IMG/VR virus record: IMGVR_UViG_3300028025_001180
Length of the DNA stretch: 64,000 nucleotides
Origin: a virus
Lineage: Duplodnaviria > Heunggongvirae > Uroviricota > Caudoviricetes
Strand: one strand, 5' to 3'
In this document: positions 8,169-63,723 of the stretch, in pieces
Layout: each line of letters begins with the position of its first letter
How positions within the stretch are numbered: position 1 is the first letter of the stretch
Translations under genes and position numbers: made by a program
Notes under the pieces: model-generated
Databases searched by the model: none
What the model saw: only the letters and a program-made list of their open reading frames with translations
Told to the model about the DNA's origin: nothing

Positions 8169-8191
8169 TGTTCAAAGTTAGTTTATTTCTA

Positions 8192-11100
8192 TTATATAAA
8201 TGTAAATTCTCTCCATGATGTACTTGTTTTAACCCATAATCCTTCAACTCCATCAGTTTGATATACTATTAATCCTGTTGCTGGTGACGATATTGCCAAT
8301 CTTTGAGCAGCTGTCATCACAGGAGGTAAGAAACCTTGAGTGGTAGAAGAAACTTGTAAAGCAGCAGTTGCAACTGAAGTGGTTGTTCCTATGTTAGTTG
8401 TACCTGCAACACAAAGACCATTAGTAGGAGCTACAGTTGATGTTGAATAACCTATTGCAACGTTTCCATTTACTTGTAAACGACTGCCTATTAAGTTGTA
8501 AGCTAATGCAATACCAACATTACCTGATGAAGATATTACTAATTTATCTGCATTTGTGCTTGTAAAAAATGATAAATAGTCATTTGTATTATCATAAATT
8601 ATTCTACCTTTAAAATCTGTTCCACTAACTGAAAAATCTATTACACTACCACCTGTTGCACTACCATTCATTTGTAAATATGCATAGTTTGCATCACTAT
8701 GCATATGTAATCCCAATCCTATTGTTGAACTTGAACCTCCTGTTACATATAGCTGAGAAGGGAAACTTGTACTACCAATAGAAGTGTATCCATTTATATA
8801 ACTATTAGAACCCAAAGTTATCAATGCCCCTGTATCTGTAATATTACTATTACCTATTGTAGTTGCACTTGTAAACTTAGCCACTGTGTTTGTAGTACCA
8901 GAAACTGCCACTGATGTTCCAGACGATCCACTAGTTCCAGATGTTCCAGATGAACCAGAGGTTCCGCTTGTTCCTGATGTACCACTAGTACCTTTAGTAC
9001 CACTGGTTCCACTCGAACCAGATGTAGCAGAAGTTCCACTAGATCCACTTGTAGCAGACGTACCTGATGATCCATTAGTACCAGATGTACCACTAGAGCC
9101 AGAAGTTCCACTAGTTCCTGTTGTACCACTTGACCCTGATGTAGCAGACGTGCCAGAACTTCCAGATGTTCCACTTGTACCAGACGACCCACTAGTACCA
9201 CTAGTTGCAGAAGAACCTGAAGATCCACTGGTTCCTGAACTTGCTGAGGTGCCAGAGCTGCCATTTGTTCCTGCAATCCCTGAGCTACCTGAAGTTCCAG
9301 CTGTACCATTACCTCCAGAAGCACCATCAAGATTTACTGTCCATGATGTAAATGTACCAGATCCCACTGTTCTAGTTGGGGCTCCAAATTGAAGAGCTCC
9401 TGTAGATGGGTTGTATGATACCACCTCACACTCTTGAAAGTTTGTAATGCTATTAACTATTATTATAGATTGAGCCACTGAATATGCCAACCCTGTTCCT
9501 ACAGTGATTGTCCCAGCATTGCCTAAAGTGAAGGATGTAGTAGATGTTGTTTGATATCTATCTCCAGATAATCCTGCAGTTCCAGATGTTCCAGACGTAC
9601 CAGTAGAACCACTTGTACCAGATGTTGCTGAAGTTCCAGACGTACCCTTAGTACCACTTGTACCACTTGATCCAGAGCTTGCTGATGTACCAGACGAACC
9701 ACTAGTCCCTGAAGTACCTGAACTACCAGACGAACCACTAGTTGCAGATGTGCCTGAGCTACCACTAGTACCAGATGTTCCAGATGAGCCACTACTACCA
9801 GAAGAAGCTGAAGTACCTGATGAGCCTGATGTAGCACTAGTGCCAGATGAACCTGAGGTTCCACTTGTTCCGCTAGTTCCCTTTGTACCACTAGTTCCAC
9901 TTGAACCACTCGTACCTGCTGTGGCATTTATACCTGAAGTACCAGCAGTAGCATTTAAACCAGATGTTCCAGAGGTACCTTGTAAACCAGAAGTACCTGA
10001 AGTAGCTGAAGTTCCAGATGTACCAGAAGAGCCAGAAGTACCAGAAGTTCCAGACGTACCTCCTCCTACAATAAGAGAAGCCTCAAAATAACTTCCTGTA
10101 CCTGAAGTATTAATATTTTGTGAAGTTGTATTTCCTGTAAAAGCAGTAACTTCTAAATAATCTGTACTTCCATTTAAGTAAATAATTTCATTTATTTGTT
10201 GAGCATACCCAGCACCACTTAATATTTGAGTTTGATTTATGCCAATTTGAGTAGAACCATTTTTTCTAAATTGTATATTAGTTTGATTGTTTGTAACAGC
10301 ACCAGCATCCCACCAAATTTGAGCATTAACATTGTAATATCCAGCAATAGTTGGCTGAAATTTATTTGGTGTGAACCAACTATTAGGATCAACATCATCA
10401 ACAAATGCTACAACTTGGTCAGATCCATTTGTTATAGTTTGTGGTGCATTTTTTATAGCTCTAAAAAGATAATTAGATGCTACTAATCCTGTAGGAGAAA
10501 TACCACTAGACCCACTAGTTCCAGCTGTACCACTGCTTCCAGAAGTACCAGACGTACCAGTAGATCCTGATGTACCTGATGTTGCTGATGTACCACTAGA
10601 TCCAGATGTGCCACTAGATCCAGATGTACCACTGGTTCCACTTGTAGCAGAAGACCCTGAAGTTCCACTAGTGCCTGATGTACCCTTAGTTCCAGATGTT
10701 CCACTTGAACCTGAAGTTGCAGATGTTCCGCTACTACCACTTGATCCACTAGTACCACTTGTTCCAGAAGAACCACTAGTTGCACTCGTACCACTTGATC
10801 CAGATGTTCCACTAGATCCAGAAGTACCACTAGTTGCTGAAGTTCCAGAAGAACCATTTGTTCCACTAGTACCAGATGAACCATTAGTTCCACTTGTGCC
10901 ACTAGTTCCTTTTGTTCCACTAGTTCCACTAGACCCAGCAGTGCCACTTGAACCAGAGGTTCCAGTAGAACCACTTGTTCCACTTGTTCCACTTGATCCA
11001 TTGGTACCACTTGTTCCACTAGAACCTGATGTGCCAGATGAACCAGAGCTTCCACTTGATGCAGAAGTTCCTGAAGATCCTGATGTGCCAGAAGTTGCAG

Positions 11101-14100
11101 ATGAACCACTTGATCCAGATGTACCTGCTGTGCCACTTGAACCACTTGTTGCACTGGTTCCACTTGATCCACTTGTACCACTAGACCCATTGGTTCCAGA
11201 AGAACCAGATGTACCACTAGTTCCAGAACTACCACTTGTTGCAGATGTTCCAGACGTACCAGATGTACCCTTTGTTCCACTAGTTCCACTTGATCCAGAT
11301 GAACCACTTGAAGCTGATGTACCAGAAGATCCAGATGTTCCAGATGTTCCAGAAGTTCCATTCGCTCCAGATGTACCAGAGGTACCAGAAGGAGGAGTAA
11401 ATGTAGTTTGTGCGTATGAATAATTACTTACACCCTCTGTGTAGAAAGTTATTGTATTAGCAGAGCCACCATTATGTTGTGCATAGATTTGACAATATAG
11501 TCTGTCTGTTGCGTTCAATGCAGTTTGACCTAAGAAAAGATCAGTGAAAAACTCTTTGATGACACCAGTGGTCATACCCTCTGTGTCTAAGTTTGTAGTA
11601 CCTAGAAGAGTAGATGCTCCTCCTGTTGTATATTTATATAGCTCTATATCAACTGCTACATTTACATTTGCGTTGATAGAAAAGTGAGTGACCCAAGCCC
11701 AGTTTCCTGAAGGTAGATTTGTAGCATTTGGTATACCTGAATCTGTAGCATAAGTTGCTATTAGTGTACGAACATTTTGTGTAACACTTAGTACCACAGT
11801 TTGTTCAGCAGTACCTGTACCAATAGGTGACCACTCTTTATATGTAGGTGTGCCAAAAGCACTATTTGTATTTACAGATTGATTTAAGTAGTATATAAGA
11901 CCTCCAGCCACACCACTTACACCAGAACTTCCTGCTGTACCAGATGTACCTGAACTGCCTGATGTTCCACTGCTTGCAGACGTACCAGATGTACCTGCTG
12001 TTCCACTTGATCCATTAGTACCACTAGTTCCAGTAGTTCCAGATGTTGCAGAAGTTCCGCTCGATCCATTGGTTCCACTAGTTCCACTAGTTCCAGATGT
12101 ACCTTTTGTACCACTAGTTCCAGAGCTTCCACTAGACGCAGAAGTACCAGAAGAACCAGAAGTAGCACTTGTACCAGAACTTCCATTAGTACCTGCTGTT
12201 CCACTCGAACCAGATGTTCCACTTGTTCCACTAGAACCACTTGAACCAGAAGTTCCTGAACTACCAGATGTTCCAGAGGTTCCACTAGATCCTGACGAGC
12301 CACTTGACGCAGATGTACCTGAAGTAGCAGAACTACCAGAAGTCCCTGAGGACCCATTAGTTCCACTTGAGCCATTGGTTCCAGATGAACCTGAAGAGCC
12401 TGAAGAACCACTGGTTGCAGATGTACCAGATGTTGCACTTGTACCAGAAGAACCAGAAGATCCACTTGTGCCTGAAGAAGCAGAAGTACCAGAAGACCCA
12501 CTAGTTGCAGAGGTTCCACTAGAACCTGCTGTTGCACTTGTACCTGATGAACCAGATGTTGCAGATGTGCCAGATGAGCCACTTGTTCCTGAGCTACCAG
12601 AAGTTCCACTTGTAGCAGATGTACCTGCAGTGGCAGATGTACCAGAACTACCAGCAGTGCCAGACGAACCACTCGTACCACTAGAACCATTGGTACCAGA
12701 TGTACCATTTGATCCAGCTGTACCACTAGTTGCACTAGTTCCATTACTTCCATTTGTGCCACTTGTTCCAGAAGAACCACTGGTGCCACTTGACCCAGAA
12801 GTACCTGCTGTAGCACTAGTTCCTGCTGTACCACTAGATCCAGATGTAGCAGATGTACCAGACGTAGCAGATGAACCAGAAGTTCCTGCTGTTCCAGAAC
12901 TACCATTAGTGCCACTAGTTCCACTAGTGCTACTAGTTCCAGAAGTAGCAGAGGTTCCATTAGACCCACTAGTACCAGAAGTACCAGACGACCCACTTGT
13001 TGCAGAAGTACCACTAGACCCATTTGTTCCAGATGTGCCTGACGATCCACTTGTCGCACTGGTTCCACTAGAACCAGAGGTACCAGATGTTCCTGTTGTG
13101 CCAGAACTACCACTAGTAGCACTTGTTCCACTTGAGCCAGATGTACCAGAAGTACCAGAAGACCCTGAGCTTCCACTTGTACCAGAGCTACCTGATGTAC
13201 CACTAGAACCATTGGTGCCAGCTGTACCAGCACTTCCTGACGTACCTGAGCTACCATCTCCACCTGATGCACCATCTAGATTGACAGTCCAAGTGGAATA
13301 TGTGCCAGAGCCTACAGTTCTGCTAGGAGCACCAAACTGAAGGGCTCCTGTATTAGTATTATAAGAAATTACCTCACATTCTTGGAAATTTACACTATCA
13401 TACACTATGATAATAGACTGTGCCAATGTATAGGCTAGTCCTGTACCAACTGTGATTGTTCCAGCGTTTCCTAATGTAAAAGATGTATTTGATGTTGTTG
13501 CGTATCTATCACCACTTAAACCAGCAGTTCCAGAAGATCCAGAAGAACCAGATGTTCCTGAAGAAGCTGACGTACCTGAAGAAGCAGATGTACCACTGGT
13601 AGCACTAGTCCCACTAGAACCAGATGATGCAGATGTTCCACTCGATCCACTAGTAGCTGAAGTTCCACTAGAACCAGACGTTCCAGAAGTTGCAGATGTA
13701 CCACTGCTGCCACTTGTTCCAGCAGTACCACTACTACCACTTGTACCAGAAGTTGCACTCGTTCCAGAACTTCCAGAAGTAGCTGAAGTTCCACTTGATC
13801 CACTAGTTGCACTTGTGCCACTAGAACCACTTGTTCCAGCAGTTCCACTAGAACCAGAAGTTCCACTTGAAGCTGATGTTCCACTAGTAGCTGATGTGCC
13901 ACTTGAACCACTAGTTGCTGATGTACCACTAGATCCGCTAGTACCACTTGATGCTGATGTACCAGATGTACCTGTTGTACCAGACGTACCTGTAGTTCCA
14001 CTAGACCCACTTGTTCCTGAAGAAGCACTAGTGCCACTAGTTCCACTAGAACCATCTGTTCCAGACGTACCTGATGTTCCTGTTGTTCCAGATGAGCCTG

Positions 14101-15403
14101 ACGTTCCTGCAGTACCAGACGTACCATTTCCACCACTAGCTCCATCTAAGTTAACTGTCCATGAGCTATATGTGCCTCCACCAACAGTTCTTGTTGGTGC
14201 AGCAAACACTAACACACCTGTATTAGTATCATAACTTATAATTTCACATTCTTGGAAATTATTTAAGTCATATACTACAATGATAGATTGTGCTACACTA
14301 TATGCTAATCCTGGAGCCACTGTTAGTGTCCCAGCATTACCTAATGTAAATGTATCTGTAGATGTTGTTCTATATCTATCTCCAGAGATACCTGCAGTAC
14401 CTGAGGAGCCTGATGTTCCTGCTGTTCCATAATAGCTACCTAAACTACCATCACCTCTTATATATTGAGCAGTTGTACCATTTGCTGTGACGTTGATATT
14501 TCCACTTGATGTAACTGGTGCTCCCACTGTAAAAGCAGAAGGCATAGTTAGCCCAACACTAGTTACAGTGCCTACTGACCAACCTCTGTTAGCAGATAAA
14601 TTATATGTAACACCATTAATTGTAAGTGTTCTAGTGCTAGGAACAGGTACATATCCTAACACAGATTCAATATCAAGATTTGTAATAGGAGCAGCTGATG
14701 TAACTAATCCTTTTCCATTTACACCAAACTTTAAGAAAGTATTACTTCCATAAATATTACTATTAACTGGTGCCAAAGTAAGAGTTACAGGAGATCCTGT
14801 CGTACCAATTCCAGTTACATCTCCTACAAAAGATAAAGATGCAGAAGGAACAGCTATAGTTACAGGAGTTACATTTGTAACACGTCCTTTACTATCTACA
14901 GTTACTCTAGGAACTTGTGTAGAAGAACCATATGTACCAGGAGCAGTATTAACTGTTGCTAATGTTAGCACAGCAGATCCAGGACCTGTTGCTGTACCAT
15001 CTCCTGTTAAAGCAGAAATATAATTTCCAGCAGGTTGGTATGGTGTATTATCTAAGCTACCATCTCCCTTAACAAAGTCTGAAGAGGTTCCACCAATTGT
15101 AATATGTTTACCAGCATATAAATCTCCTGTATATGTTAAATCAAAACCTGCAGCTGTAATAATTGTGTCACGTACCATAGTGCCACCAAGTCCCACAGGC
15201 AAGCCTGGTCCAGATTGAAAAACACCATTATTAAATAGATATCCTATTGCAGCTTCCTGAAACTTAGCATCTATTTTTTGTAGAGCAGTTTGTAAACTAT
15301 CATTAGTATTGATGCCAGTGTATACTAAATTAGCACCTTCGTAAAATACGCAAGTAGAATTCAGTATGACTGGACATGGTTCAGTGGAGCAAATTGGATC
15401 CAT
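8192..15403 (-). CDS. Giant tail fibre, 2403 aa. Long imperfect collagen-like (G/A-T/S-S)n tracts alternate with three copies of a ~90-aa globular repeat. Its N-terminal Cys module is shared with two other fibre genes.
   Basis: The N-terminus reads MDPICSTEPCPV...CVFYEGANLVYTGINTNDSLQTALQKIDAKF. There are hundreds of GTSGSSGTSATSG triplets. The triplicated module reads LSGDRY-TTS-TSFTLGNAGTITVGTGLAY-AQSIIIV...NFQECEV-SYN--TGALQFGAP-RTVGSGT--WTVNLDGASGG. The C-terminus reads GFLPPVMTAAQRLAISSPATGLIVYQTDGVEGLWVKTSTSW. Confidence 0.85.
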   Translation of the reverse strand: MDPICSTEPCPVILNSTCVFYEGANLVYTGINTNDSLQTALQKIDAKFQEAAIGYLFNNGVFQSGPGLPVGLGGTMVRDTIITAAGFDLTYTGDLYAGKHITIGGTSSDFVKGDGSLDNTPYQPAGNYISALTGDGTATGPGSAVLTLATVNTAPGTYGSSTQVPRVTVDSKGRVTNVTPVTIAVPSASLSFVGDVTGIGTTGSPVTLTLAPVNSNIYGSNTFLKFGVNGKGLVTSAAPITNLDIESVLGYVPVPSTRTLTINGVTYNLSANRGWSVGTVTSVGLTMPSAFTVGAPVTSSGNINVTANGTTAQYIRGDGSLGSYYGTAGTSGSSGTAGISGDRYRTTSTDTFTLGNAGTLTVAPGLAYSVAQSIIVVYDLNNFQECEIISYDTNTGVLVFAAPTRTVGGGTYSSWTVNLDGASGGNGTSGTAGTSGSSGTTGTSGTSGTDGSSGTSGTSASSGTSGSSGTTGTSGTTGTSGTSASSGTSGSSGTSATSGSSGTSATSGTSASSGTSGSSGTAGTSGSSGTSATSGSSGTSATSGSSGTSATSGTSGSSGTAGTSGSSGTSATSGTSGSSGTSATSGSSGTSASSGSSGTSATSGTSASSGTSASSGTSGSSGSSGTAGLSGDRYATTSNTSFTLGNAGTITVGTGLAYTLAQSIIIVYDSVNFQECEVISYNTNTGALQFGAPSRTVGSGTYSTWTVNLDGASGGDGSSGTSGSAGTAGTNGSSGTSGSSGTSGSSGSSGTSGTSGSSGTSATSGSSGTTGTSGTSGSSGTSATSGSSGTSGTNGSSGTSATSGSSGTSGTSGSNGTSATSGTSSTSGTSGTNGSSGTAGTSGSSATSGTSATSGSSGTAGTSATAGTSGSSGTSGSSGTSGTNGSNGTSATSGTAGSNGTSGTNGSSGTSGSSGTAGSSGTSATAGTSATSGTSGSSGTSGSSGTSATSGSSGTSATAGSSGTSATSGSSGTSASSGTSGSSGSSGTSATSGTSATSGSSGSSGSSGTNGSSGTNGSSGTSGSSATSGTSASSGSSGSSGTSGTSGSSGTSGSSGSSGTSGTSGSSGTAGTNGSSGTSATSGSSGTSASSGSSGTSGTKGTSGTSGTSGTNGSSGTSATSGTTGTSGTNGSSGTAGTSGTSASSGTSGSSGTSGTAGSSGVSGVAGGLIYYLNQSVNTNSAFGTPTYKEWSPIGTGTAEQTVVLSVTQNVRTLIATYATDSGIPNATNLPSGNWAWVTHFSINANVNVAVDIELYKYTTGGASTLLGTTNLDTEGMTTGVIKEFFTDLFLGQTALNATDRLYCQIYAQHNGGSANTITFYTEGVSNYSYAQTTFTPPSGTSGTSGANGTSGTSGTSGSSGTSASSGSSGSSGTSGTKGTSGTSGTSATSGSSGTSGTSGSSGTNGSSGTSGSSGTSATSGSSGTAGTSGSSGSSATSGTSGSSGTSASSGSSGSSGTSGSSGTSGTNGSSGTSGTSGSTGTSGSSGTAGSSGTSGTKGTSGTSGTNGSSGTSGTNGSSGTSATSGTSGSSGTSGSSGTSATSGSSGTSGTSGSSGSSGTSATSGSSGTSGTKGTSGTSGTSGSSATSGTSGTSGSSGTSGSSGTSATSGTSGSTGTSGTSGSSGTAGTSGSSGISPTGLVASNYLFRAIKNAPQTITNGSDQVVAFVDDVDPNSWFTPNKFQPTIAGYYNVNAQIWWDAGAVTNNQTNIQFRKNGSTQIGINQTQILSGAGYAQQINEIIYLNGSTDYLEVTAFTGNTTSQNINTSGTGSYFEASLIVGGGTSGTSGTSGSSGTSGTSATSGTSGLQGTSGTSGLNATAGTSGINATAGTSGSSGTSGTKGTSGTSGTSGSSGTSATSGSSGTSASSGSSGSSGTSGTSGSSGTSATSGSSGSSGTSGTSGSSGTSASSGSSGTSGTKGTSGTSATSGTSGSTGTSGTSGTAGLSGDRYQTTSTTSFTLGNAGTITVGTGLAYSVAQSIIIVNSITNFQECEVVSYNPSTGALQFGAPTRTVGSGTFTSWTVNLDGASGGNGTAGTSGSSGIAGTNGSSGTSASSGTSGSSGSSATSGTSGSSGTSGTSGSSGTSATSGSSGTTGTSGTSGSSGTSGTNGSSGTSATSGSSGTSATSGSSGTSGTKGTSGTSGTSGTSGSSGTSGTSGSSGTSVAVSGTTNTVAKFTSATTIGNSNITDTGALITLGSNSYINGYTSIGSTSFPSQLYVTGGSSSTIGLGLHMHSDANYAYLQMNGSATGGSVIDFSVSGTDFKGRIIYDNTNDYLSFFTSTNADKLVISSSGNVGIALAYNLIGSRLQVNGNVAIGYSTSTVAPTNGLCVAGTTNIGTTTSVATAALQVSSTTQGFLPPVMTAAQRLAISSPATGLIVYQTDGVEGLWVKTSTSWREFTFI
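9313..9590 (-). repeat. Copy 3 of the intragenic ~270-bp direct repeat.
   Basis: The reverse complement translates to GLSGDRYQTTSTTSFTLGNAGTITVGTGLAYSVAQSIIIVNSITNFQECEVVSYNPSTGALQFGAPTRTVGSGTFTSWTVNLDGASGG. Confidence 0.7.
13262..13530 (-). repeat. Copy 2 of the intragenic ~270-bp direct repeat.
   Basis: Same module sequence: LSGDRYRTTSTDTFTLGNAGTLTV...NFQECEIISYDTNTGVLVFAAPTRTVGGGTYSSWTVNLDGASGG. Confidence 0.7.
14129..14400 (-). repeat. Copy 1 of a ~270-bp direct repeat that encodes the conserved globular module inside the 2403-aa fibre.
   Basis: About 70% protein-level identity to the copies at 13262..13530 and 9313..9590. The nucleotide similarity is visible by eye. Confidence 0.7.
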
Positions 15404-15555
15404 ATATTAATAATAATAATGTATAAGTAATTGATATACAAATAGGTGTATACTATGGGAAAGTGTACACCTATATACGCAAAAATAGCGAATTTAATTT
15501 AGTTTCAATGAGTTAGGAAAATTATTCCTACATAATATAGCAATAACTATGCTAT

Positions 15556-53661: not shown

Positions 53662-55215
53662 TTAGAATTGAGGAATCTCTTCAATCAATACTGTTCTAGA
53701 TAAATCTTCAATGAATACATCACAACGATCTTTCATCCAGATTTCATATCCTGGGAATTTGTTCGCAGAACTCATACCTTGAGACTTAGCAAAGCCTAAG
53801 TGGTGACGAGTACCATCGATATAACCCCAAGTCATAGAAGGTGCACCCTTCATACGTACTTCACGAATGTTATTGATCATAGAACCATCAGACATTGGAG
53901 ATACATCAAACACCATAAATACTGGAGTTGACTTCTTGTTTTGTCCAAATTCTAAATTTGTTTGAGGTAAGTCTAATTCTTTCAAGTGAATTAATTCAAC
54001 ACGACCAGTCTCACGAGTTACCATTGCATCGAATGCAAAGTTGTAAGTGATGTGTTGTCCTTCTCCTTGCATGTATCTGTTACCAGAATCAGCCATGAAA
54101 GTTAAACCAGAGTTCAAAGCGTCATTCTTCAAAGCTTGTTGGAACACGTCAAAACCAGCTTCGTTAGTGTACATTTTAACTCTTCTATCTTTAACATCAA
54201 CACGTCTGTAGAATAAGTCACCAAACACTGAACGAATCAAGTTTGCAGTGAACTCACCACGATTGTATTGAACTAAGTTACCATTGTTACGCATTCTGTG
54301 GTAAACACCAGCAGATGTACGCTTTAATTCTTGCTTAGAACCATTAGTCTTCACAGTTCCAGGACGAGCCCAGATCATACGCTTAACTTTTAATTCTAAC
54401 ATAGACTTACGCATCCAGAACTCAATAAATGGTTCCCACTTAACATCGTTACGAGTTAAAGGTAATTGGTTACGTCTTTGAGGAGCATATACTAAGATAT
54501 CTAAAGGTTTGCCAGAAGCATCTCTCATCATCTTGTCATCAGCCCACTCTGTAATTTTGTGCTCATAACCATATGCAGAACCTAAAGATTCAAACATTGT
54601 GATTTGCTCACCTAAACGAGGAAGACCTAATAAGTCTTGATCAAACTCACCAATTGCAGCATCAACTAATTCTAGTTCGATACCAACTTGTAAGAATGTA
54701 CCACTTACGAAATCAACTGTAGGATTGTCACTCACCAAAGTGAAAGTGTACAAGAAGCCCATATTCCAAGGAACAGGATCTTTTACTACATAGAAACGAG
54801 GACCATACTGACGAGTACCTACAGAAATGATAGCGTTCTTAGAGAACTCATTAGTGTCGATAATCAATTGGAACTCTTGACCATCAATACCAGGCTTGGA
54901 TAACTCCAAAGTGCTAGTAGGAACGTCAATGATTTTTGGGAACTTGTAAGGAACTTGTACTTGCCATTTCCAAGCATCACTGTTATTATCGATATAGTAA
55001 GGAGTAGACTTGTTAATCATGTCTAAGAAGTCATTACTATAAAGAGAACTCTGAGTGTACAAACTGATAATCTTCTTATCATAGTCTGCAGGCTCTGTAG
55101 AGTGAAAGCTCTCTAAGTGGTTTGAGTCAGTCAACTTACCTACTGCACGCTTATCCATAGAAGCGACACGAGCATAAGTAAATCCAGTTAAACCTGGAAT
55201 TGTTTGAATTGCCAT
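53662..55215 (-). CDS. Major capsid protein candidate, 517 aa.
   Basis: About 500 aa, immediately downstream of an acidic scaffold-like gene and followed by a strong RNA hairpin. Order is terminase-portal-scaffold-capsid. No fold-level proof. Confidence 0.55.
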   Translation of the reverse strand: MAIQTIPGLTGFTYARVASMDKRAVGKLTDSNHLESFHSTEPADYDKKIISLYTQSSLYSNDFLDMINKSTPYYIDNNSDAWKWQVQVPYKFPKIIDVPTSTLELSKPGIDGQEFQLIIDTNEFSKNAIISVGTRQYGPRFYVVKDPVPWNMGFLYTFTLVSDNPTVDFVSGTFLQVGIELELVDAAIGEFDQDLLGLPRLGEQITMFESLGSAYGYEHKITEWADDKMMRDASGKPLDILVYAPQRRNQLPLTRNDVKWEPFIEFWMRKSMLELKVKRMIWARPGTVKTNGSKQELKRTSAGVYHRMRNNGNLVQYNRGEFTANLIRSVFGDLFYRRVDVKDRRVKMYTNEAGFDVFQQALKNDALNSGLTFMADSGNRYMQGEGQHITYNFAFDAMVTRETGRVELIHLKELDLPQTNLEFGQNKKSTPVFMVFDVSPMSDGSMINNIREVRMKGAPSMTWGYIDGTRHHLGFAKSQGMSSANKFPGYEIWMKDRCDVFIEDLSRTVLIEEIPQF

Positions 55216-55250
55216 TGTTATACTTTTTTAATTTTTGTTATATAAATTGT

Positions 55251-56525
55251 TTATTGAAACCAAGAAGTGGATCTAGCTGACTGTTTAGATTTCACTGAAC
55301 TCTTCTGGGCTTGTCTGGCAACCTCACCAAATAACTCATTTGATTTTTTGGTGATACCTGTCTTTTGAATAGTAGATAATGTAGGGTCTTTTTCTAAGAT
55401 CTTCATTATCAATGCAAGCTTTACTTTTGTTGCATGATTCTCAGGACGTTTCAGCTCCAGTATAGTACGATCAAAATCTGTAAGAGTTTCTCCAGATGCT
55501 GTCTTGTACTTGTCTGTTACTAGGAAATCTTGTAGTTCACCAGCTAATTTAGGGTTAATTGGTATGCCATCAAATTCTTTAGCTTTAATCTTATCCTGTA
55601 AAACTTGGTTTACATTTTGTAAGTATTGTTGCTTGATGGCTTGTTGCTCTTGCAATTGAGCTTGTTTATCTTGCTCTAATTGTTGAAGCTTTGTAGCTTC
55701 TTTCTTTATTAAGACTTTATGATGTTTAGCAGCAACAGTTTCTAAATCACCATAGTTTTTAAGTCTTTCAACCTCTGTTGTAACATCTTCAGGATCAAAC
55801 CCTTGATCTGTTAATGCTTGTTTGATAACAGCAACTTGATTACTCTCATCGCTTAAATCCATCTCAGAGAAAGACTTGATTTGATTAAATGCACCAAAGT
55901 AGTCTTTTGGACTAACTCCTTTTACAAATATGGCATCAAACGCTTCTTGATAATCTTCTCCAAACTGACCAATGAAGTTGTTTACTATTTCAATAGCTCC
56001 CTTCTTCTTCTCTGCTTGGAACTTCTCCAAGAAAGCTTCAGGGCTATCAATAACTGTTTCTTCTTCATCTTCGTCTTGTGAAAAGACACCTAGTTTTAAA
56101 AGATCTTTTGATAAAGCTTCGAACTGGTTAGGAACTCCTTCTTCACCATCTTCGTCATCTTCATCACTATCTTCTTGATTATCAGCACCTTTTGCAACTG
56201 GTTTCTTATCTGTTGCAGGAGCTTCATCATCTTCTTCAGCATCTTCATCTTCTCCATATAAGAAACTTTGAATGTCCTTTTCAGGAGCTTCGTCTTTCTT
56301 ATCATCTTCTGGAGCAGGAGTAGATGCAGCTGTTTGTTTAGAAGTAGTTTTCTTTGTTGGAGCAGGAGCAGGTTCATCTTTAATGTCCTGAATGTCATCA
56401 GGATTAGATGTAGCACTTTCAGGAGATAACAAGTCATTTAATAACTCTTGATTTCCCATTCCCATATCCATAGTATCTTGAATACTAAAGTTGCCCATTT
56501 GGGGCATATCTAGATTTTCAGCCAT
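55251..56525 (-). CDS. Scaffolding-like protein, 424 aa. The N-terminal half is highly acidic (DEDDE runs) and the C-terminus has coiled-coil-like heptads.
   Basis: Composition: EDEDAEEDDEAP, SDEDDEDGEEG. C-terminal heptad-like QLEQDKQAQLQEQQAIKQQ. It lies directly upstream of the capsid gene. Confidence 0.5.
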   Translation of the reverse strand: MAENLDMPQMGNFSIQDTMDMGMGNQELLNDLLSPESATSNPDDIQDIKDEPAPAPTKKTTSKQTAASTPAPEDDKKDEAPEKDIQSFLYGEDEDAEEDDEAPATDKKPVAKGADNQEDSDEDDEDGEEGVPNQFEALSKDLLKLGVFSQDEDEEETVIDSPEAFLEKFQAEKKKGAIEIVNNFIGQFGEDYQEAFDAIFVKGVSPKDYFGAFNQIKSFSEMDLSDESNQVAVIKQALTDQGFDPEDVTTEVERLKNYGDLETVAAKHHKVLIKKEATKLQQLEQDKQAQLQEQQAIKQQYLQNVNQVLQDKIKAKEFDGIPINPKLAGELQDFLVTDKYKTASGETLTDFDRTILELKRPENHATKVKLALIMKILEKDPTLSTIQKTGITKKSNELFGEVARQAQKSSVKSKQSARSTSWFQ

Positions 56526-56644
56526 ATGTAGTTGAGTTTTAATTGGTTTTGTATGTAAAAGTAAATTAACTTAAGTTACTAGCAAAGAGAGGAGCCTTTA
56601 TATTGATCATTATTCAGTATAATATAGCATTAATATTTTTTACT

Positions 56645-57175
56645 CTAATCTAATTTGTTAAGAAAATTGTCATTTATAAGTCTATAACTTCTGATTGGGG
56701 CAAGGTCTGTTAGCGTAACTTGTTGAACATCAACCCCCCACTTCCTAGCTTCCACCCTAACTTTCTTAGTTAATGTGTTATCTAATTCAGAATCTGTACA
56801 TTCCTCCATAGTCATTGACATAATAACGTTTTTTATTATGCTTTGAGACATGTCTGACAATGCATCTTGTGCATCAAACACTTCAAGTAGAAATATCTTT
56901 ACGTCTGATATCTTGTATTTTACAACTCCCTTGACAACAATGTTTTGTTTATCTAGGGTATACAAAGACTGAGCGTCTAAGCTAAGTGTTGTAACTACTA
57001 CATGCTGATCTATCACTTCGTCAAAGAAAGGAACTTTAAAATGTATGCCTGGAAGCAACACTTGATTAAACTTTCCAAATCTTAGAAGTACAGCCTGTTC
57101 ATAGTCTCTGATGATGATGAATGGTAGAATATGATTCCACCATTCAATCAATACATCAATTAGTTTATCAAACAT
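56645..57175 (-). CDS. SPFH/band-7 (stomatin/prohibitin/HflKC-like) domain protein, 176 aa, with no N-terminal transmembrane segment.
   Basis: YEQAVLLRFGKFNQVLLPGIHFKVPFFDEV...VTTLSLDAQSLYTLDKQNIVVKGVVKYKISD...EARKWGVDVQQVTLTDLAP follows the SPFH consensus (ERAVV-RLGK...GPG-HF-IPF...V-V...TKDN-V-VDAVV-YRV-DP...WG-EV--V-I-DI-P). Confidence 0.65.
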   Translation of the reverse strand: MFDKLIDVLIEWWNHILPFIIIRDYEQAVLLRFGKFNQVLLPGIHFKVPFFDEVIDQHVVVTTLSLDAQSLYTLDKQNIVVKGVVKYKISDVKIFLLEVFDAQDALSDMSQSIIKNVIMSMTMEECTDSELDNTLTKKVRVEARKWGVDVQQVTLTDLAPIRSYRLINDNFLNKLD

Positions 57176-57177
57176 AT

Positions 57178-59760
57178 TTATTTGGTTTTCTTAGCTCTAC
57201 CTTTAGCGTTCTCTTTAGCTACAGCAAGATCATTAGCTTGATTCTCTCTAGCTATCTTTAACTTCTCTCTTTCTATCTCTAGCTTCTGAGAAGCAAGTTG
57301 GTTCTTGCTTTGTACATCCATCATCTTAGCTTGGTAATCTCTTTCAGCCTTTGACTGAGCCAAAGCCAGTTTGTCAATTTCTAGCACATCAGGAGTACCA
57401 CTGGTATCAAGATCTGATAAAGGACCACTCTTAGATTCAGCTGCAATAAGAGCAATTTCTTTCTTATTGATTCTATCAAGCTCAGCTTGGTAGTTTTCAT
57501 TAGCTAGTTTTTCTTCTGCTTGTATTTGAGCCGCTTCAATCTGAGCCTGAGCAATTTGTTGTGTTTGTTCAATTTCTTGTTGCTTTTGTTGTAACTGAGC
57601 GTTCTGCATAGACTCTTGTCTATCCTTCAATTTCTTAAACACCTGCTTCATTTGTCTCATTGAGTTGGTGCTATATAGTTCAATTACATCATGTAAAGAT
57701 CCACCATTTTGTATAACAGCTTGAGACAATCCTCTAATTTCATTAAACATTTGTCTATCTTCAGGTCTGTTAGTTAAGAATACCTTTAAGTCTCTAAAAC
57801 GTAAGTCTGTACCATTTACAGATACAAATGCAGATTCTCCCTCAGACGTAATATAAGATATAGTAGACTGTGGTTTCTTACTCTCAACGTATAAAGCTGC
57901 ATCAATAATTGATTGATATAGCTGACCTAGTACATATTCATGTGCTACAAACAAAGGTTCTGTCTGAGCATAAGATTGTGTAATAGCTGCGTTAGTACCT
58001 GTTGCTGATTCACTAGCTTGTACAGATCCTAGTCTTTGTCTTGACATACCTATCAATTCCCAACACTCATTCTTAAGTTGTTGTGCTAGAGTATATCTTG
58101 CTTGGATCTCCTGCGTACGTGTAAGGTCTAAGCTGGTGTATTGGTTAAATGAGCTTGGGCTCTTTAAGTTTTCAGGGCTGTCATCTACAAATACCACACC
58201 TCTGTTACGAGCTTCCATTTCCCAAATATCAAGAGCATCTTGAGCATCTCCATCCTTAGGAATAGGAATGTGTCTGATAGACATTAATTGCACCTTACCC
58301 ACTTCCTTCTCAAGTAGCTTATATAACTGGTTCATACACACATTATATAAAACTTGGAAAGGCTTCATCATATCTACAAGGCTCTTAGCCTCTGTATTCT
58401 TCACCTCAAATACTTGACCAATGATTGGACAGTAAGGTAATAAGTTATAAGGTTTGATATGGTAGATGTCTGGACCAATCTTAATACCTTGGTACCATTG
58501 GTTAATCCATCCCCACTCTAATGAAATTTCTGTAGGAATTGTTTTAGATTTATAGTCTTCATCTACTAACATAGATTGTTCATTACCCATCTCATCTGTA
58601 TATATCAACTTTCCTATCTTCTTTTTAGAAATCCAATAAGATCTTACTACTACATACTTATAACCAAAAGAGCTAACGTTTGATGTTAGTCCTAAGAAAT
58701 CCTGAAGACCATCATTGTTCTCTTTCATCTCAGACTCAATGATCATTCTAGTCTGTAGGACTAATGGATCATATGTATCATATTGAACAGAGTCATTACC
58801 AGGAATAGCATTAGGATTACCTAAGTTAGATTCACGTACGTTGATAAGACCATAGTCTTGTAATGAACTACGTAAGTGGTCAATCTCATCTTTAGTTAAG
58901 TCTGGAATAGACTCAATGATTTCAGACAACTCCATAACCTGTACAGTACCAGCAGCATATGCTCCTTGACTTCTACCAGTTGTATCTGATATATACTTTC
59001 TATCTGGAGTGGTTAAGAACCAAGTGTTCTTAGGATTAGCTACTTCTACATTAAATCCTGTCTTTGAGTTGTCCTCATAGATGTGGAAGAATTCTCTAGA
59101 AGAAATCAAAAGATCTCTAAAAGCATCTTCAGACTTTTCTTTTAATACAAACTCAGCTTTCTCAGCAGTTAATATATGGTTTGCCCATTTCTCTGCTATA
59201 GATGTATAACTATCAAGTTCATCTTTTACTTGTTCTAATGTTTTCTCCTGTAACTCCTCGTCTGAAATCTCTACACCATCAAATGCTGCTTTCTCTAATA
59301 TCTTTCTTTGTGCTTGAGAAACAACATAGTCTTGTAATAGTTGAGTTTTAAATTCAAGCTCTTCAGCTTTACTATCATCATCAAATGCCTTTACACGAAA
59401 TGCATCAGGTCTTTTAGAGATCTCTCCTACTAACTCATTAATAGGAGTGGTCATTATAGAATAATGTTTTACATAGGCAGGAAGAGCTAGATCTGCTGTG
59501 AGCACATCTGTGAAACTTCTTACTTCTGGTTCTTGGTAGAAATCTTCTCTTCTTAAAATACCTTTTACAAGGTCATAGTTTTTAACAAATGTATCTCTGT
59601 TCTTTACATACTCAGCATAGGCTTTGTTAGCAAAGTAATCCATTGTATTTTTAATCCAACTCTCATCCATCTTTTCTTTCTCAGTCTTGAACTGATCAGG
59701 GAAAATGTTAAGATAGGCATACCTGATTGTTGCGTCTTTCGTGTATCTTATAATTGCCAT
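57178..59760 (-). CDS. Portal protein candidate, 860 aa.
   Basis: It lies immediately downstream of the large terminase and has a size typical of crAss-like portals. The C-terminus is a charged coiled-coil. Confidence 0.55.
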   Translation of the reverse strand: MAIIRYTKDATIRYAYLNIFPDQFKTEKEKMDESWIKNTMDYFANKAYAEYVKNRDTFVKNYDLVKGILRREDFYQEPEVRSFTDVLTADLALPAYVKHYSIMTTPINELVGEISKRPDAFRVKAFDDDSKAEELEFKTQLLQDYVVSQAQRKILEKAAFDGVEISDEELQEKTLEQVKDELDSYTSIAEKWANHILTAEKAEFVLKEKSEDAFRDLLISSREFFHIYEDNSKTGFNVEVANPKNTWFLTTPDRKYISDTTGRSQGAYAAGTVQVMELSEIIESIPDLTKDEIDHLRSSLQDYGLINVRESNLGNPNAIPGNDSVQYDTYDPLVLQTRMIIESEMKENNDGLQDFLGLTSNVSSFGYKYVVVRSYWISKKKIGKLIYTDEMGNEQSMLVDEDYKSKTIPTEISLEWGWINQWYQGIKIGPDIYHIKPYNLLPYCPIIGQVFEVKNTEAKSLVDMMKPFQVLYNVCMNQLYKLLEKEVGKVQLMSIRHIPIPKDGDAQDALDIWEMEARNRGVVFVDDSPENLKSPSSFNQYTSLDLTRTQEIQARYTLAQQLKNECWELIGMSRQRLGSVQASESATGTNAAITQSYAQTEPLFVAHEYVLGQLYQSIIDAALYVESKKPQSTISYITSEGESAFVSVNGTDLRFRDLKVFLTNRPEDRQMFNEIRGLSQAVIQNGGSLHDVIELYSTNSMRQMKQVFKKLKDRQESMQNAQLQQKQQEIEQTQQIAQAQIEAAQIQAEEKLANENYQAELDRINKKEIALIAAESKSGPLSDLDTSGTPDVLEIDKLALAQSKAERDYQAKMMDVQSKNQLASQKLEIEREKLKIARENQANDLAVAKENAKGRAKKTK

Positions 59761-61802
59761 TATGAAAACAATTTATTTCGTTTATATTTATTTCTTGATT
59801 GTCCAAACATGTTATTCCTAGCTTCAGTGAAAAGTAAATTACCTCTTTTCTTATTGAACATAGAAGCCACTCTCTCATCTGATGTGCCACCTATCTTACC
59901 CATTATTGGGTCCATCTTCATTGCTTGAGCGATGGCTAACTCTGCAGCAATGATTCTATCAAAGTTACCTTGATCATTGTATTGAATAATCTCTTCAAGC
60001 AATACAGGATCAAATATCTTACTTACACCCAAGACTTCTCTAATCACCTCACCTGCATCATTCTTCTCTACAAAAATAGGAGCTTCCATATACTTCTTAA
60101 GACATGTGTGAAGATAGTCAATTATCTTCTGACTTGAACGATGAATTCCATAATCTCTTTTTACAGTGGTATTAGGAACAATCTCTTTAAGCCAGTCAGG
60201 TTGTCTCTCTAGATAGTGAGCATCCCCTTTAGCCTTCATATATTCGATAAATGATATATCATCATTCTCACACAGTGTTCTAGCGTTATAATACTTAATA
60301 AGAAATCTAGCCTGTTCTTCCCAAGTTTCTTTCTTATCAGGTCTTGCACAATACGAAGCTACGAACATATCTTGATACTTCTCACCACTAATTTCATGCA
60401 TCCTTTTATATATGTATACAGATCCAAGTGAACTTGAATATGCAGACTTACCTTGTCTATATGGATCGACCCCTGCTACGTACAATCCATAAGGTGGATT
60501 ATCTACAGGGAATTCGTATATAACAATAGGTGCTTCTTTCAGGTCTGAGTTCTTTAGAGGGAAGTTAGAGATGGGTAATTTATCTGTAAACTCATGAGCT
60601 ATCTTCTCTCCATCATGAAATAAAACAACAGGAGTTCCTGTTCTTTCTTGATTTAATAATCTAGTCTTCTGTCTCTTAGCACTGTCAATATCAAATATAT
60701 TTGTGTCCTCATTCAAGAAGATATCATCTACTTCCTGAGGATAGTACATTTTTTCTTTTAAATAGGCTATTCTATCTCCAGCTTTCTTAAGTCTTTCTAA
60801 GTTGTCATTAGTAATCTGAGTTGCCTTCTCTTCATTACTTACAAGCATTTTTACATTATGTAAGTCTGAGGTGGATGGTTCGTTCAAATATGATCCTAGT
60901 GTAGAATCCTCCTTTGCCTCCATTCTATACTTATGAGAAATGAAAAGACCATGTACACGCTTGTCATCTTTACTATTATTATATGTAAGGAAATTAAAGT
61001 TGTCTACGTCAAACATCAAGGATTTAGCATCCATGAATTTCTTCATGTCCCCACCAGTCCCAGTAAGTATGGGGCTACATCCCCAACCATAGGGTGTAGT
61101 GAAACCTGGAATAGCAGCCTGTAAGCCTCTAAGGAAATTCCCTTTACCAATCTCATCTATAATTAATTTACGTGGTTTTGTACCTGCAATTGCCTCTTCA
61201 TTATTACCTTCATCAAGGTTACGTATTAGAATGGAAGAGAATGGGATACGTTCACCAGACTTGGTCTTTATACCTAGAGTCACTTGGTTCTTCCAGTTGT
61301 CCTCAATTCTCTGCCATCTCCAATACTCAGGAATGAAATTCAATCCTTTGTCAATCTTATCAGTGATCAGTTTAATATCTGGGGCATTTAAACCTGCAAT
61401 AATATTCTGACTGTTCTCATCAAAGGTGGCACCCCATGCAATATAGGATGCTTCTAAAACTGACTTGGCAAAACGTCTAATACCTAGAATGACTAAGCCT
61501 CTCTTTTCTTGTTGGGCCCTGTCAATTTCGTTTGTCACAAGCCACTCATTATCTCTTAAAAAAGGATTGGCATATTTCTGTGCAATCCTTCCTCTTTCAT
61601 CTATTACGTCAACTTCTGTATGCCATATGTTCAAGTGCCAATACAAAAATGGGTTAATGTAAACACCTCCCATCATAGCTCCATTTAAACATAGCTCTCT
61701 GTGAAAGTCAAAGAATGGCTTACACTCCTGAGAGTCTTTATCAGGAATACGCTTCTGATTTATAAACCAGTCTTTATAATCTATATTTTGTAGTTCTATC
61801 AT
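59760..61802 (-). CDS. Terminase large subunit, 680 aa.
   Basis: Walker A-like LVILGIRRFAKSVLE (terminase-type R-x-x-G/A-K-S). Walker B-like KPRKLIIDEIG. Downstream nuclease-domain acidic motifs (YVAGVDPY). Position upstream of the portal. Confidence 0.75.
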   Translation of the reverse strand: MIELQNIDYKDWFINQKRIPDKDSQECKPFFDFHRELCLNGAMMGGVYINPFLYWHLNIWHTEVDVIDERGRIAQKYANPFLRDNEWLVTNEIDRAQQEKRGLVILGIRRFAKSVLEASYIAWGATFDENSQNIIAGLNAPDIKLITDKIDKGLNFIPEYWRWQRIEDNWKNQVTLGIKTKSGERIPFSSILIRNLDEGNNEEAIAGTKPRKLIIDEIGKGNFLRGLQAAIPGFTTPYGWGCSPILTGTGGDMKKFMDAKSLMFDVDNFNFLTYNNSKDDKRVHGLFISHKYRMEAKEDSTLGSYLNEPSTSDLHNVKMLVSNEEKATQITNDNLERLKKAGDRIAYLKEKMYYPQEVDDIFLNEDTNIFDIDSAKRQKTRLLNQERTGTPVVLFHDGEKIAHEFTDKLPISNFPLKNSDLKEAPIVIYEFPVDNPPYGLYVAGVDPYRQGKSAYSSSLGSVYIYKRMHEISGEKYQDMFVASYCARPDKKETWEEQARFLIKYYNARTLCENDDISFIEYMKAKGDAHYLERQPDWLKEIVPNTTVKRDYGIHRSSQKIIDYLHTCLKKYMEAPIFVEKNDAGEVIREVLGVSKIFDPVLLEEIIQYNDQGNFDRIIAAELAIAQAMKMDPIMGKIGGTSDERVASMFNKKRGNLLFTEARNNMFGQSRNKYKRNKLFS

Positions 61803-62131
61803 TTTCTATTTGCTAAGAACTCAGCAGCTGCTCCTGATAGCTCGCCTTTTCCTCTCACTTCCACCTTAGCTTCTTCCATGTTTCTTAACTTATCTACCAC
61901 TTCTACTAGAGCAAGGTAGTTTTTCATTGTCTCTTGTACAAACTTACCTTGAGCTTCAATAGATGCTATGACCATAGGTAACATGCCTCCTTTAGCTGTA
62001 GGTTTCCACTCAATCCTATCTTTCAATTCATGTAGTGGATTAGCATCAACGTATTGTTTCCATGAAACAAGTTGTGTCTCAGCCCATTCAAGCTCTGTAT
62101 TTATATATGTAGTTTTCTTAATAGTCGCCAT
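61799..62131 (-). CDS. Small protein, 110 aa, overlapping the terminase start. Possible small terminase or packaging accessory protein.
   Basis: Position only. ATGA overlap with the large terminase gene. Confidence 0.3.
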   Translation of the reverse strand: MATIKKTTYINTELEWAETQLVSWKQYVDANPLHELKDRIEWKPTAKGGMLPMVIASIEAQGKFVQETMKNYLALVEVVDKLRNMEEAKVEVRGKGELSGAAAEFLANRK

Positions 62132-62402
62132 CTTCTTCTTCTTCTTTTAGAATGTTATCAAGATCCATGCCCTCTTTAATTATCTTTTCTAACTCAGATT
62201 CCTCTGTATGAGGAACATCCATTTCTATTTCAGACTTATATTTGCTAAGAGCAAATGCTAGCTCTTTATCTGTTATACCCCAAATGTCACCATATCCATC
62301 AAGAGCTGTAGCTAAGTGTCTTCCCAAATTGTATGTAGGGAAGTCTTTATGTAGTTCTTGCAGTATAGATATCACTTCTGTATAGTGAGTCTTTTTACTC
62401 AT
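62118..62402 (-). CDS. Small acidic hypothetical protein, 94 aa.
   Basis: ORF track. Confidence 0.4.
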   Translation of the reverse strand: MSKKTHYTEVISILQELHKDFPTYNLGRHLATALDGYGDIWGITDKELAFALSKYKSEIEMDVPHTEESELEKIIKEGMDLDNILKEEEEDGDY

Positions 62403-62406
62403 TGTA

Positions 62407-62664
62407 TTATATTAACTGGTTTATATCGTCATCTGTTAGTTTACCTGAACCAATCTCCAAGTCTAACTCATCTATCTCTCCAAAGTTCTTTTTGCCTTCT
62501 TCTGTCATGTAATCTTTTGTAAACACTATTGCCATACTATCAAAGTCAGTACCTGGTTTTCCAGATATGTCAATATAATCTATCCCCTGATTATAAAGGC
62601 TAACTAACGTCTCAATCAGAGCGTCCAGTGGAATCTTCTGAATCTTCACTTCCTTGTTTTCCAT
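62407..62664 (-). CDS. Small acidic hypothetical protein, 85 aa.
   Basis: ORF track. Its 5' end overlaps the 115-aa ORF by 53 nt. Confidence 0.4.
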   Translation of the reverse strand: MENKEVKIQKIPLDALIETLVSLYNQGIDYIDISGKPGTDFDSMAIVFTKDYMTEEGKKNFGEIDELDLEIGSGKLTDDDINQLI

Positions 62665-62959
62665 ATACTGTTTGTATTAGTTGTTCTTCATCCTCTCTTG
62701 ATTCCATCTCTGCCACCCACTTTTCTATAGGGCAAGCACAAGATAAACACCTAGTTTTTGCTGCTAGGGTGCAGCCACAATGTGTACAATGCTTATCAAA
62801 CCTTCTAGGTTTCTTAGGTCTGTTTTCAGAACACCATTCACAGGCATCACAAATAGCCATACGTTGTTGGCTAATTTCTCTAATTTGCTCTTTCATATCG
62901 TCAGCTGGGAATAGGTTATTCTTCCAGCCCTCGTATATCTGAGAGAAGTTGATCTTCAT
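62612..62959 (-). CDS. Zinc-ribbon-type Cys-rich protein, 115 aa.
   Basis: CDACEWC ... CTHCGC ... CLSCAC Cys clusters (C-x2-C-x2-C, C-x2-C-x-C, C-x2-C-x-C). Confidence 0.5.
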   Translation of the reverse strand: MKINFSQIYEGWKNNLFPADDMKEQIREISQQRMAICDACEWCSENRPKKPRRFDKHCTHCGCTLAAKTRCLSCACPIEKWVAEMESREDEEQLIQTVYGKQGSEDSEDSTGRSD

Positions 62960-63302
62960 AGGTAATTTTACTTTTTAGTAAATTGATCAGAGCTTCTGTT
63001 TTTTCTAGTGTCACCTGAGAGGAACGTTTCTTCTGTTCAGAGGTTTCAGCACTGGCTATGAACTCAAGCATTAGGTTTTTCTTCCTAGTCAAGTCTTCTA
63101 GACGTTTCTTAGCTTTCTTCTCGTTGAAATAAAACTTCCCAAACCCAGAGATTTCGATACTGTTATTTGTGTCCATCGCCTCGTTGGCAGATTGAAACTG
63201 GTGGTTTATCACTGTCTCAATCATCTTCTCAGAAATCATCATCTTCACAGCAAGGGTTCTGACTAGGTAGTCTTTGACAGACATACTTATAGGCTTATCC
63301 AT
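62916..63302 (-). CDS. HU/IHF-like DNA-binding protein, 128 aa, with a divergent C-terminal half.
   Basis: The N-terminal half follows the HU pattern (SVKDYLVRTLA...EKMIETVI...FQSANEAM...IEISGFGKF), including the GFGKF signature. The canonical R-N-P-x-T-G beta-arm is not recognisable. Confidence 0.55.
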   Translation of the reverse strand: MDKPISMSVKDYLVRTLAVKMMISEKMIETVINHQFQSANEAMDTNNSIEISGFGKFYFNEKKAKKRLEDLTRKKNLMLEFIASAETSEQKKRSSQVTLEKTEALINLLKSKITYEDQLLSDIRGLEE

Positions 63303-63660: not shown

Positions 63661-63723
63661 AGGTATGTATATCTGGACGATCTACAAATAACTAAATTAG
63701 TTATTATAAAACTTAATGCTATA

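Follow-up and report, generated by a model that had tools for sequence, protein, structure and literature searches.

We report that a phage gene in an exchangeable slot next to the portal gene encodes a protein reduced to the membrane-proximal half of a stomatin/HflK-type scaffold subunit, namely an amphipathic helix followed by the SPFH1 and SPFH2 subdomains. The gene lies on a 64,000-nucleotide stretch of DNA from a tailed phage (IMG/VR record IMGVR_UViG_3300028025_001180), which we refer to as the window, where it occupies positions 56645..57175 of the minus strand as an ATG-to-TAG open reading frame (ORF) of 176 codons plus stop. Its product, here called mini-SPFH, is preserved by strong selection, and close relatives of the phage nevertheless replace, lose or truncate the gene. 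With moderate confidence, we interpret mini-SPFH as a dispensable, late, membrane-directed accessory protein.

Half of a stomatin-type scaffold subunit

The SPFH fold that the original prediction had ascribed to this protein is confirmed by Pfam, by an AlphaFold2 model and by Foldseek. The 176-aa protein matches the Pfam domain Band_7/SPFH (PF01145) over residues 21-160 with E=4.6e-26, scoring 92.4 bits where the gathering cutoff is 23.6, and the AlphaFold2 model, computed from a 78-sequence alignment, has a mean predicted local distance difference test score (pLDDT) of 89.7 and a predicted template modelling score (pTM) of 0.76. The top Foldseek match in the Protein Data Bank (PDB) is human stomatin (9oh9, E=1.7e-14, TMq 0.77), followed by HflK (7vhq, E=1.8e-13), QmcA (8z5g), prohibitin, erlin and flotillin, and the Foldseek probability is 1.00 for stomatin, HflK/C and all others of these proteins. 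Isolated SPFH core domains (3bk6 and 4fvf) superpose on the model at a root mean square deviation (rmsd) of 1.0-1.7 Å. A profile of mini-SPFH and its relatives, searched against solved structures, also found human stomatin (E=2.8e-24), together with E. coli QmcA and HflK/HflC.

The model divides the chain into four parts, all encoded on the minus strand. Residues 2-16 (57128..57172; from the AlphaFold2 secondary structure and the hydrophobic moment) form the N-terminal amphipathic helix: for residues 2-17 the hydrophobic moment (muH) is 0.61 at a mean hydrophobicity of 0.37, and one face of the helix holds D3, K4, D7, E11, N14 and H15. Its pattern M-F/L-D-x-L...W....P is kept across the alignments of the mini-SPFH family, and in the profile alignment it corresponds to the latter half of the membrane hairpin of stomatin. 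The beta strands of SPFH1 (residues 19-72; 56960..57121) follow, as seen in the AlphaFold2 secondary structure and within structural alignments of 162-167 columns to stomatin and HflK, and then the alpha/beta core of SPFH2 (residues 78-160; 56696..56944), defined by the model and by the matches to 3bk6 and 4fvf. Where a coiled coil would be expected, the model shows a short C-terminal tail (residues 161-176; 56648..56695), with mean pLDDT values of 64 for residues 161-170 and 48 for residues 171-176. This tail is conserved within the clade of relatives; it contains an S-x-R-L motif conserved in the whole family, and R165 is conserved at 90% or more.

Two further features that had been claimed for the protein, the missing membrane anchor and the missing long C-terminal coiled coil, hold as well. 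The 176 residues include neither a signal peptide nor a transmembrane segment, the highest Kyte-Doolittle mean over 19 residues (KD19) being 1.28 against a threshold of 1.6. The AlphaFold2 model shows no coiled coil: the chain ends 16 residues past the last SPFH2 strand, and thus stops at the point where the coiled-coil wall starts in every solved SPFH cage.

By current understanding, SPFH proteins are scaffolds that assemble into cages and depend for this on a membrane anchor and a coiled-coil wall; stomatin and slipin cages are 16-26-mers. Stomatin and the slipins (QmcA, Pyrococcus PH1511) are the best matches of mini-SPFH in both sequence and structure, with an rmsd of 1.0 Å to the PH1511 core; they share with it SPFH1 and SPFH2 behind a membrane-facing N-terminal segment, and a cytoplasmic location is likely. 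Unlike these proteins, mini-SPFH has an amphipathic helix only, without the hydrophobic hairpin or transmembrane anchor, and it lacks the coiled-coil helix and the oligomerisation and cap region of stomatin, about 165 of whose 255-275 residues can be aligned. It also differs from the prokaryotic slipins in being phage-encoded and in having no NfeD partner, as neither of its two neighbours (the portal gene and the gene of a 424-aa protein) encodes one. The best NCBIfam match is hflK (TIGR01933, E=4.6e-21), and the theme of a protease-associated SPFH protein is shared with HflK/HflC. However, the equivalog cutoffs of both families are clearly missed (75.4 vs 159.4 bits for TIGR01933, 51.9 vs 134.4 for TIGR01932), only positions 1-147 of the 261 in the hflK model are covered, and mini-SPFH is a single gene rather than a K/C pair, with no transmembrane segment and no coiled coil. 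The lack of a transmembrane segment also rules out a periplasmic position of the SPFH domain such as that in HflK/C. Mini-SPFH is homologous to the membrane-proximal half of stomatin, slipins and HflK and would resemble it in action, yet stands outside these families as they are defined.

The gene is real and under strong purifying selection. The ratio of non-synonymous to synonymous substitution rates (dN/dS) is 0.064, 0.076 and 0.12 in comparison with the relatives L001, L010 and L021, with synonymous sites near saturation. A large protein database holds 712 homologous clusters, the best 120 of which are all exactly 176 aa long and 82-94% identical; the contigs that carry homologues reach about 115 kb, and the source records label these homologues automatically as 'HflC/HflK'. 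Given hundreds of equally long homologues and a dN/dS of 0.06-0.12, the ORF is not a product of chance. A decaying, functionless fragment of a captured host SPFH gene could be suspected, since mini-SPFH is shorter than all cellular SPFH proteins and one relative, L056, holds only a remnant. This reading is effectively refuted by the low dN/dS at nearly saturated synonymous sites, by the constant length of 176 aa among the best-listed homologue clusters, and by the age and diversity of the family and its clear separation from cellular slipins, and it can practically be dismissed.

Mini-SPFH represents a family of its own. A HMMER search of 1.84 billion representatives gave 4535 matches at E<=1e-3, and nearly all of the best 150 are 168-190 aa long and colinear with the window protein from residue 1 to about 170, at 30-50% identity. 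When a profile was made from distant members only, family proteins of 154-187 aa scored 154-247 bits, and the next best protein, P0340, a 248-aa cellular slipin with an N-terminal transmembrane segment (KD19 2.72) and a coiled coil, scored 107 bits; this drop in score marks the family as discrete. We define its members as proteins of 154-187 aa that are colinear from the M-F/L-D-x-L helix to the S-x-R-L motif and score well above cellular SPFH proteins. The window protein, which serves as the anchor of the family alignments and was unscored in the distant-member search, belongs to the family by its full-length colinear alignments. All sampled contexts of the family are phage-borne. In BFVD, the best match is A0A6J7WFI0, a 173-aa 'HflK' of an uncultured Caudovirales phage whose structure matches over the whole length (TMq 0.88), and GenBank record MW202733 labels another member, UOF81165, as 'prohibitin-like protein'; both entries are auto-annotated only, match the window protein in length, and are colinear with it at 23-28% identity. 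A scan of IMG/VR with the family member P0264 yielded no confirmed match.

Phage-encoded SPFH proteins as such are already known, and their genes have been listed since 2006 (PMC1524935). Those of the T4-like phages 44RR, Aeh1 and RB43, gp200 of Vi01-like phages, the genes of Agrobacterium phage OLIVR and orf75 of Burkholderia phage CSP3 were reported as accessory or moron genes (PMC1524935, PMC10892097, PMC10269572, PMC13239085), the discussion of phage SPFH genes treats them as morons without a known function (PMC10269572, PMC13239085, PMC4936722), and a preprint mentions an SPFH domain match in a gut Crassvirales genome without giving its location (bioRxiv 10.64898/2026.08.21.746148). These proteins, including the Vi01-like lipoprotein gp200, phrog_200 and the band-7-like OLIVR protein, resemble mini-SPFH in being accessory proteins of unknown function. 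Most other viral SPFH proteins, from phages and giant viruses alike, are 250-500 aa long and have coiled-coil regions as well as a transmembrane segment or a lipobox; mini-SPFH is shorter and separate, with at most 35% identity to other viral SPFH proteins over partial lengths. In the literature, we found neither a functional study of any phage SPFH protein nor a published description of a short, anchor-less and coil-less SPFH family or of its cassette behaviour.

An exchangeable slot behind the portal gene

The position of mini-SPFH was compared among the best 80 kept relatives (capsid protein at least 96% identical), in which 64 loci cover both the portal end and the gene of the 424-aa protein. 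The window-type allele is present in 51 of these 64 loci, at 66-98% identity. Five loci (L035, L039, L040, L071 and L074) carry a different mini-SPFH of 175-176 aa, allele B, which is only about 31% identical to the window allele; with 131-137 bits and a Pfam Band_7 match at 7.6e-15, it is nevertheless a clear member of the mini-SPFH family. Since allele B is closer to other members of the family (48.6% identity to P0243) than to the window allele, it represents a xenologous replacement. In the sequence within about 7 kb of the capsid gene, no SPFH gene is found in seven loci (L037, L047, L049, L075, L076, L100 and L102), whose slot holds an acidic ORF of 78-83 aa and an ORF of 84-89 aa with a HEHFH motif of the metallopeptidase-like HExxH type (5090-5558 in L037); neither ORF has a Pfam or PHROG match. 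In the one remaining locus, L056, only the C-terminal third of the SPFH gene is left. Whatever the content, the slot is limited by the portal stop codon on one side and by an invariant 15-mer, TTAATGCTATATTAT, on the other, which was found without a mismatch in 19/19 related loci checked.

More distant phages also vary at this position. Leptolyngbya phage Lbo-JY46, the closest cultured relative by its portal protein, has nothing between the portal gene and the gene of a 407-aa protein, and two unrelated genes fill the slot in cr10_1, a crAss phage of the gut. The gene order TerL-portal-SPFH-424aa-capsid is common within the clade, yet it is not fixed. The four slot states (51, 5, 7 and 1 loci), the xenologous allele and the absence from Lbo-JY46 and cr10_1 together lead us to conclude that, in this phage group, accessory genes use the slot behind the portal gene as a cargo site and that the SPFH gene is dispensable for head building.

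The idea that this gene is a conserved component of the head module is not supported. The original prediction had named absence or loss of synteny in relatives as a refutation, and this is what is observed: the gene is absent from the slot in the seven loci, Lbo-JY46 and cr10_1 and lies elsewhere in L015, L018 and L111. The role in procapsid assembly or at the portal vertex that had been suggested from the position is unsupported too, as close relatives swap or lack the gene and its contexts vary. For annotation, this means that a location inside a head operon does not make a head-assembly gene.

A helper of head assembly or packaging, for example a ring or platform at the membrane where the portal dodecamer, the start of prohead formation or the packaging motor would be organised, is distinctly unlikely in the light of these data. 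It would have an analogue in the membrane-bound gp20-gp40 initiator of phage T4, and it could account for the SPFH start 2 nt past the portal stop, for the synteny kept in relatives down to 66% SPFH identity, for the position near TerL/portal in three further lineages (L015, L108 and MW202733) and for the constant placement in structural operons of crAss-like lineages. However, the portal proteins of the seven SPFH-less relatives are still about 81-83% identical to that of the window, and those of the five allele-B relatives about 78-79%. An SPFH allele of about 31% identity next to such a well-conserved portal counts against a co-evolving structural partner, which would not tolerate the swap. 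The SPFH-less slots of Lbo-JY46 and cr10_1 argue in the same direction, as do family members that lie beside primase, DNA polymerase and nucleotide-metabolism genes.

Cassette-like presence and absence and allele swapping are typical of phage accessory conflict genes, and mini-SPFH could accordingly serve in superinfection exclusion, or in counter-defence against membrane-acting host systems. The loss and xenologous exchange among otherwise near-identical phages would fit such a gene well, and homing endonucleases are found as neighbours: in L012, a 140-aa Endonuclease_7 of the homing type (PF02945, E=8e-26; 7579-8001) is inserted between portal and SPFH. On the other hand, dN/dS within the window allele is low, not elevated, PADLOC gave no match, and no known anti-defence or exclusion protein with an SPFH fold was found in the literature searched. 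We consider a conflict gene improbable.

In the family as a whole, about 15 independent contexts were sampled, roughly 10 of them late and 5 of the early or replication type. A second crAss-like lineage (L015) has SPFH upstream of an intein-containing TerL gene and the portal gene, and a third (L018, L111 and L112) has it in the tail module, between a CrAss_Ring_2-adjacent gene and the gene of a structural protein of about 1540 aa. At the L020 and P0314 loci, SPFH ends a late operon, following a lysozyme/endolysin gene and two small membrane or lipoprotein ORFs; it lies downstream of an Amidase_2 endolysin gene in L106 and of a holin gene in L019. SPFH adjoins TerL in L108 and MW202733, with TerL and a lysozyme gene downstream in L108, and it follows tail genes in L105 and L107. 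It is found beside endonuclease and primase genes in L013, between Trypsin_2 and PolA in L016, among DNMK, PDDEXK and UvrD genes in L017, among early-type small genes in L104, and after the gene of a DNA-polymerase exonuclease subunit in L109. As a separate observation, the TerL homologue of L015 (9456-12890) has 1144 aa with Hom_end_hint and LAGLIDADG_3 domains, and an HNH_3 gene lies just upstream of SPFH.

Three to four of these lineages (L020, P0314, L106, L019 and L108), in which SPFH closes a late operon near endolysin and small membrane or lipoprotein genes, point to a factor of lysis timing or membrane integrity. Such a protein might organise or sequester the holin or other late membrane proteins, or stabilise the energised membrane until lysis, and late co-expression is likely in the window. 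Yet no lysis gene adjoins SPFH in the window, about a third of the contexts are of the replication type, and we know of no precedent for an SPFH protein that controls a holin. We therefore regard this explanation as unlikely.

A proposed membrane-directed role late in infection

For the accessory protein that we favour, we propose the following mechanism. Mini-SPFH would be made late in infection and stay in the cytoplasm, where its amphipathic helix and SPFH1 would dock peripherally on the inner face of the cytoplasmic membrane. The solved SPFH cages (structures of HflK/C, stomatin, QmcA, flotillin, prohibitin and erlin) are held together by a coiled-coil wall and a C-terminal cap. Since mini-SPFH lacks both, it should be unable to form a closed cage alone, and would thus act as a monomer or a small oligomer. 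In this state, it may bind a membrane target or intercalate into SPFH assemblies of the host, such as slipin-NfeD or HflK/C-FtsH-type protease microdomains; most economically, the partner would be an SPFH-protease microdomain of the host, or else a different late membrane protein. The effect could be a tuning of membrane proteolysis or of the membrane state late in infection, up to lysis. In the manner of a moron, the gene would confer a fitness benefit although it is dispensable, and it would act outside the capsid assembly machinery. Action at a membrane is in keeping with two members of the family that have gained hydrophobic segments, P0209 as a hairpin of two helices within the SPFH1 loop (residues ~40-95) and P0152 as a C-terminal tail anchor (residues 183-203), and with the transmembrane segment of the nearest cellular relative, the slipin P0340. 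The manipulation of FtsH or of the membrane of the host, which the original prediction had offered as an alternative to the head role, comes close to what we propose.

A more aggressive variant would be a viral decoy. Here, mini-SPFH would keep the lateral interfaces of SPFH1 and SPFH2, with which it could intercalate into or cap host SPFH cages of the slipin-NfeD or HflK/C-FtsH type and open or poison them, so that a membrane protease might be released or re-targeted late in infection. If decoy alleles were tuned to different host scaffolds, the swapping of alleles in the slot would be explained. We consider the decoy unlikely; if it were true, no viral antagonist of SPFH membrane microdomains would have been described before mini-SPFH.

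Several observations weigh against a membrane-directed accessory role. The SPFH gene lies within two genes of TerL/portal in at least four independent lineages (the window, L015, L108 and MW202733), and in crAss-like lineages it is always found inside structural operons. The proximity to TerL/portal in the four lineages is the main fact that our preferred reading leaves unexplained, and it could indicate a link to packaging or assembly. As the SPFH-less relatives were inspected within about 7 kb on either side of the capsid gene, the SPFH gene could lie elsewhere in these seven genomes. Neither the window protein nor any of three distant members of the family matched a PADLOC model. Finally, the membrane binding of the helix is itself something that we infer from its amphipathicity and from the variants in other family members.

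The phage family is a large one and keeps just the SPFH1-SPFH2 module of scaffolds that are understood to need an anchor and a coiled-coil wall. Should these proteins act on SPFH/protease microdomains of the host, they would be natural tools to dissect SPFH cage assembly and protease regulation, and would reveal an uncharacterised route by which phages control the host membrane.

Neighbouring genes, transcription signals and source phage

The source is a freshwater crAss-like phage from a group of very high abundance, with close relatives of its capsid gene on more than 600 IMG/VR contigs. No GenBank phage was matched by a megablast search with 9 kb of sequence, and the phage collection searched contains no isolate of this phage. 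One relative, L021 (JBBAJX010000014.1, 59 kb, SPFH 81% identical), was binned in a metagenome-assembled genome of Sediminibacterium sp.; this is possibly a weak hint of a host in the Bacteroidota (Chitinophagaceae), or else a binning artefact.

On the minus strand, the genes follow each other in the order HU/IHF-like, TerL, portal, SPFH, a 119-nt spacer, the 424-aa protein and the major capsid protein. The HU/IHF-like gene (62916-63302) was assigned by eye, with a weak Pfam Bac_DNA_binding match on the homologue in relatives. The large terminase TerL (59760..61802; phrog_6681, 5.6e-85) is the first large gene of the co-oriented block and is followed by the portal gene (57178..59760; P22_portal, 4.8e-13; phrog_6547, 3e-102). 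Only 2 nt separate the portal stop codon (57178-57180), which forms the left edge of the variable slot, from the SPFH ATG downstream of it. The major capsid protein (53662..55215) is of the crAss type (PF23898 Crass_capsid, 6.7e-28; phrog_11589).

The gene that precedes it (55251..56525, minus strand) encodes the acidic, helical 424-aa protein, which matches only phrog_16294, a PHROG of unknown function, and lacks relatives in the PDB. Its position is that of a protein of about 400 aa encoded ahead of the capsid gene in other crAss-like phages, and similarity to this counterpart is weak in cr10_1 (E=6e-6) and Lbo-JY46 (E=3e-7); the 424-aa protein might act as a scaffold. The original prediction had placed SPFH between portal and scaffold genes; the gene does follow the portal gene directly and precedes the capsid-preceding gene, whereas the scaffold label is putative.

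The 119-nt intergenic region between SPFH and the 424-aa gene (56526..56644, minus strand) forms the right edge of the slot and is a candidate phage promoter. Its mean column identity across relatives is 83%, above that of the flanking coding DNA, and it contains the conserved 15-mer at 56619-56633. A second exact copy of TTAATGCTATATTAT, oriented oppositely and towards the window end, lies at 63713-63727 (plus strand), and a copy with one mismatch, TTATTGCTATATTAT, at 15532-15546 (minus strand), directly upstream of an ORF of 2403 aa. Copies of this type precede both the 424-aa/capsid genes and the 2403-aa ORF. Only exact and one-mismatch copies are meaningful, as no enrichment was seen when up to 3 mismatches were allowed (8 found, 8 expected). 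We regard the 15-mer as a candidate promoter of the phage; on this reading, SPFH would be the last gene of the TerL-portal unit. A scan for sigma-70 promoters around the SPFH gene found 22 against 26 expected, which is uninformative because a Bacteroidota-type or phage RNA polymerase system is likely. Terminator-like hairpins number 9 in the region 55000-62500, compared with 3.3 +/- 1.8 in shuffles, and one of them (56492-56506, minus strand) falls within the 424-aa gene, close to its 5' end.

Peptidase-like genes occur near several family members. In L016, a contig of about 106 kb, the gene of a Trypsin_2 serine peptidase (7333-8016) overlaps the start of mini-SPFH by 16 nt, a single example that recalls the pairing of stomatin with NfeD proteases in prokaryotes. 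L020 has the gene of a HExxH lipoprotein two genes upstream of SPFH, and the slot of cr10_1 includes an annotated 'peptidase' with only a weak aRib match. We rejected a recurrent partnership of SPFH with peptidases: the HExxH proteins of L020 and of the seven SPFH-less relatives share no detectable homology (E=1.5) and belong to no Pfam or PHROG family, and the association is anecdotal only.

No tRNA genes are present in the 64-kb window. A run of giant ORFs in the same orientation (1502, 2403, 1666, 3660, 925, 1122 and 1569 aa) extends over 3660-43956 (minus strand), downstream of the head genes, as we would expect for the tail, cargo and virion RNA polymerase proteins of crAss-like phages. 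Inside the 2403-aa ORF (8192..15403), a GC-rich island at 8000-14000 has a GC fraction of 0.41-0.47, compared with about 0.35 in the rest of the window.

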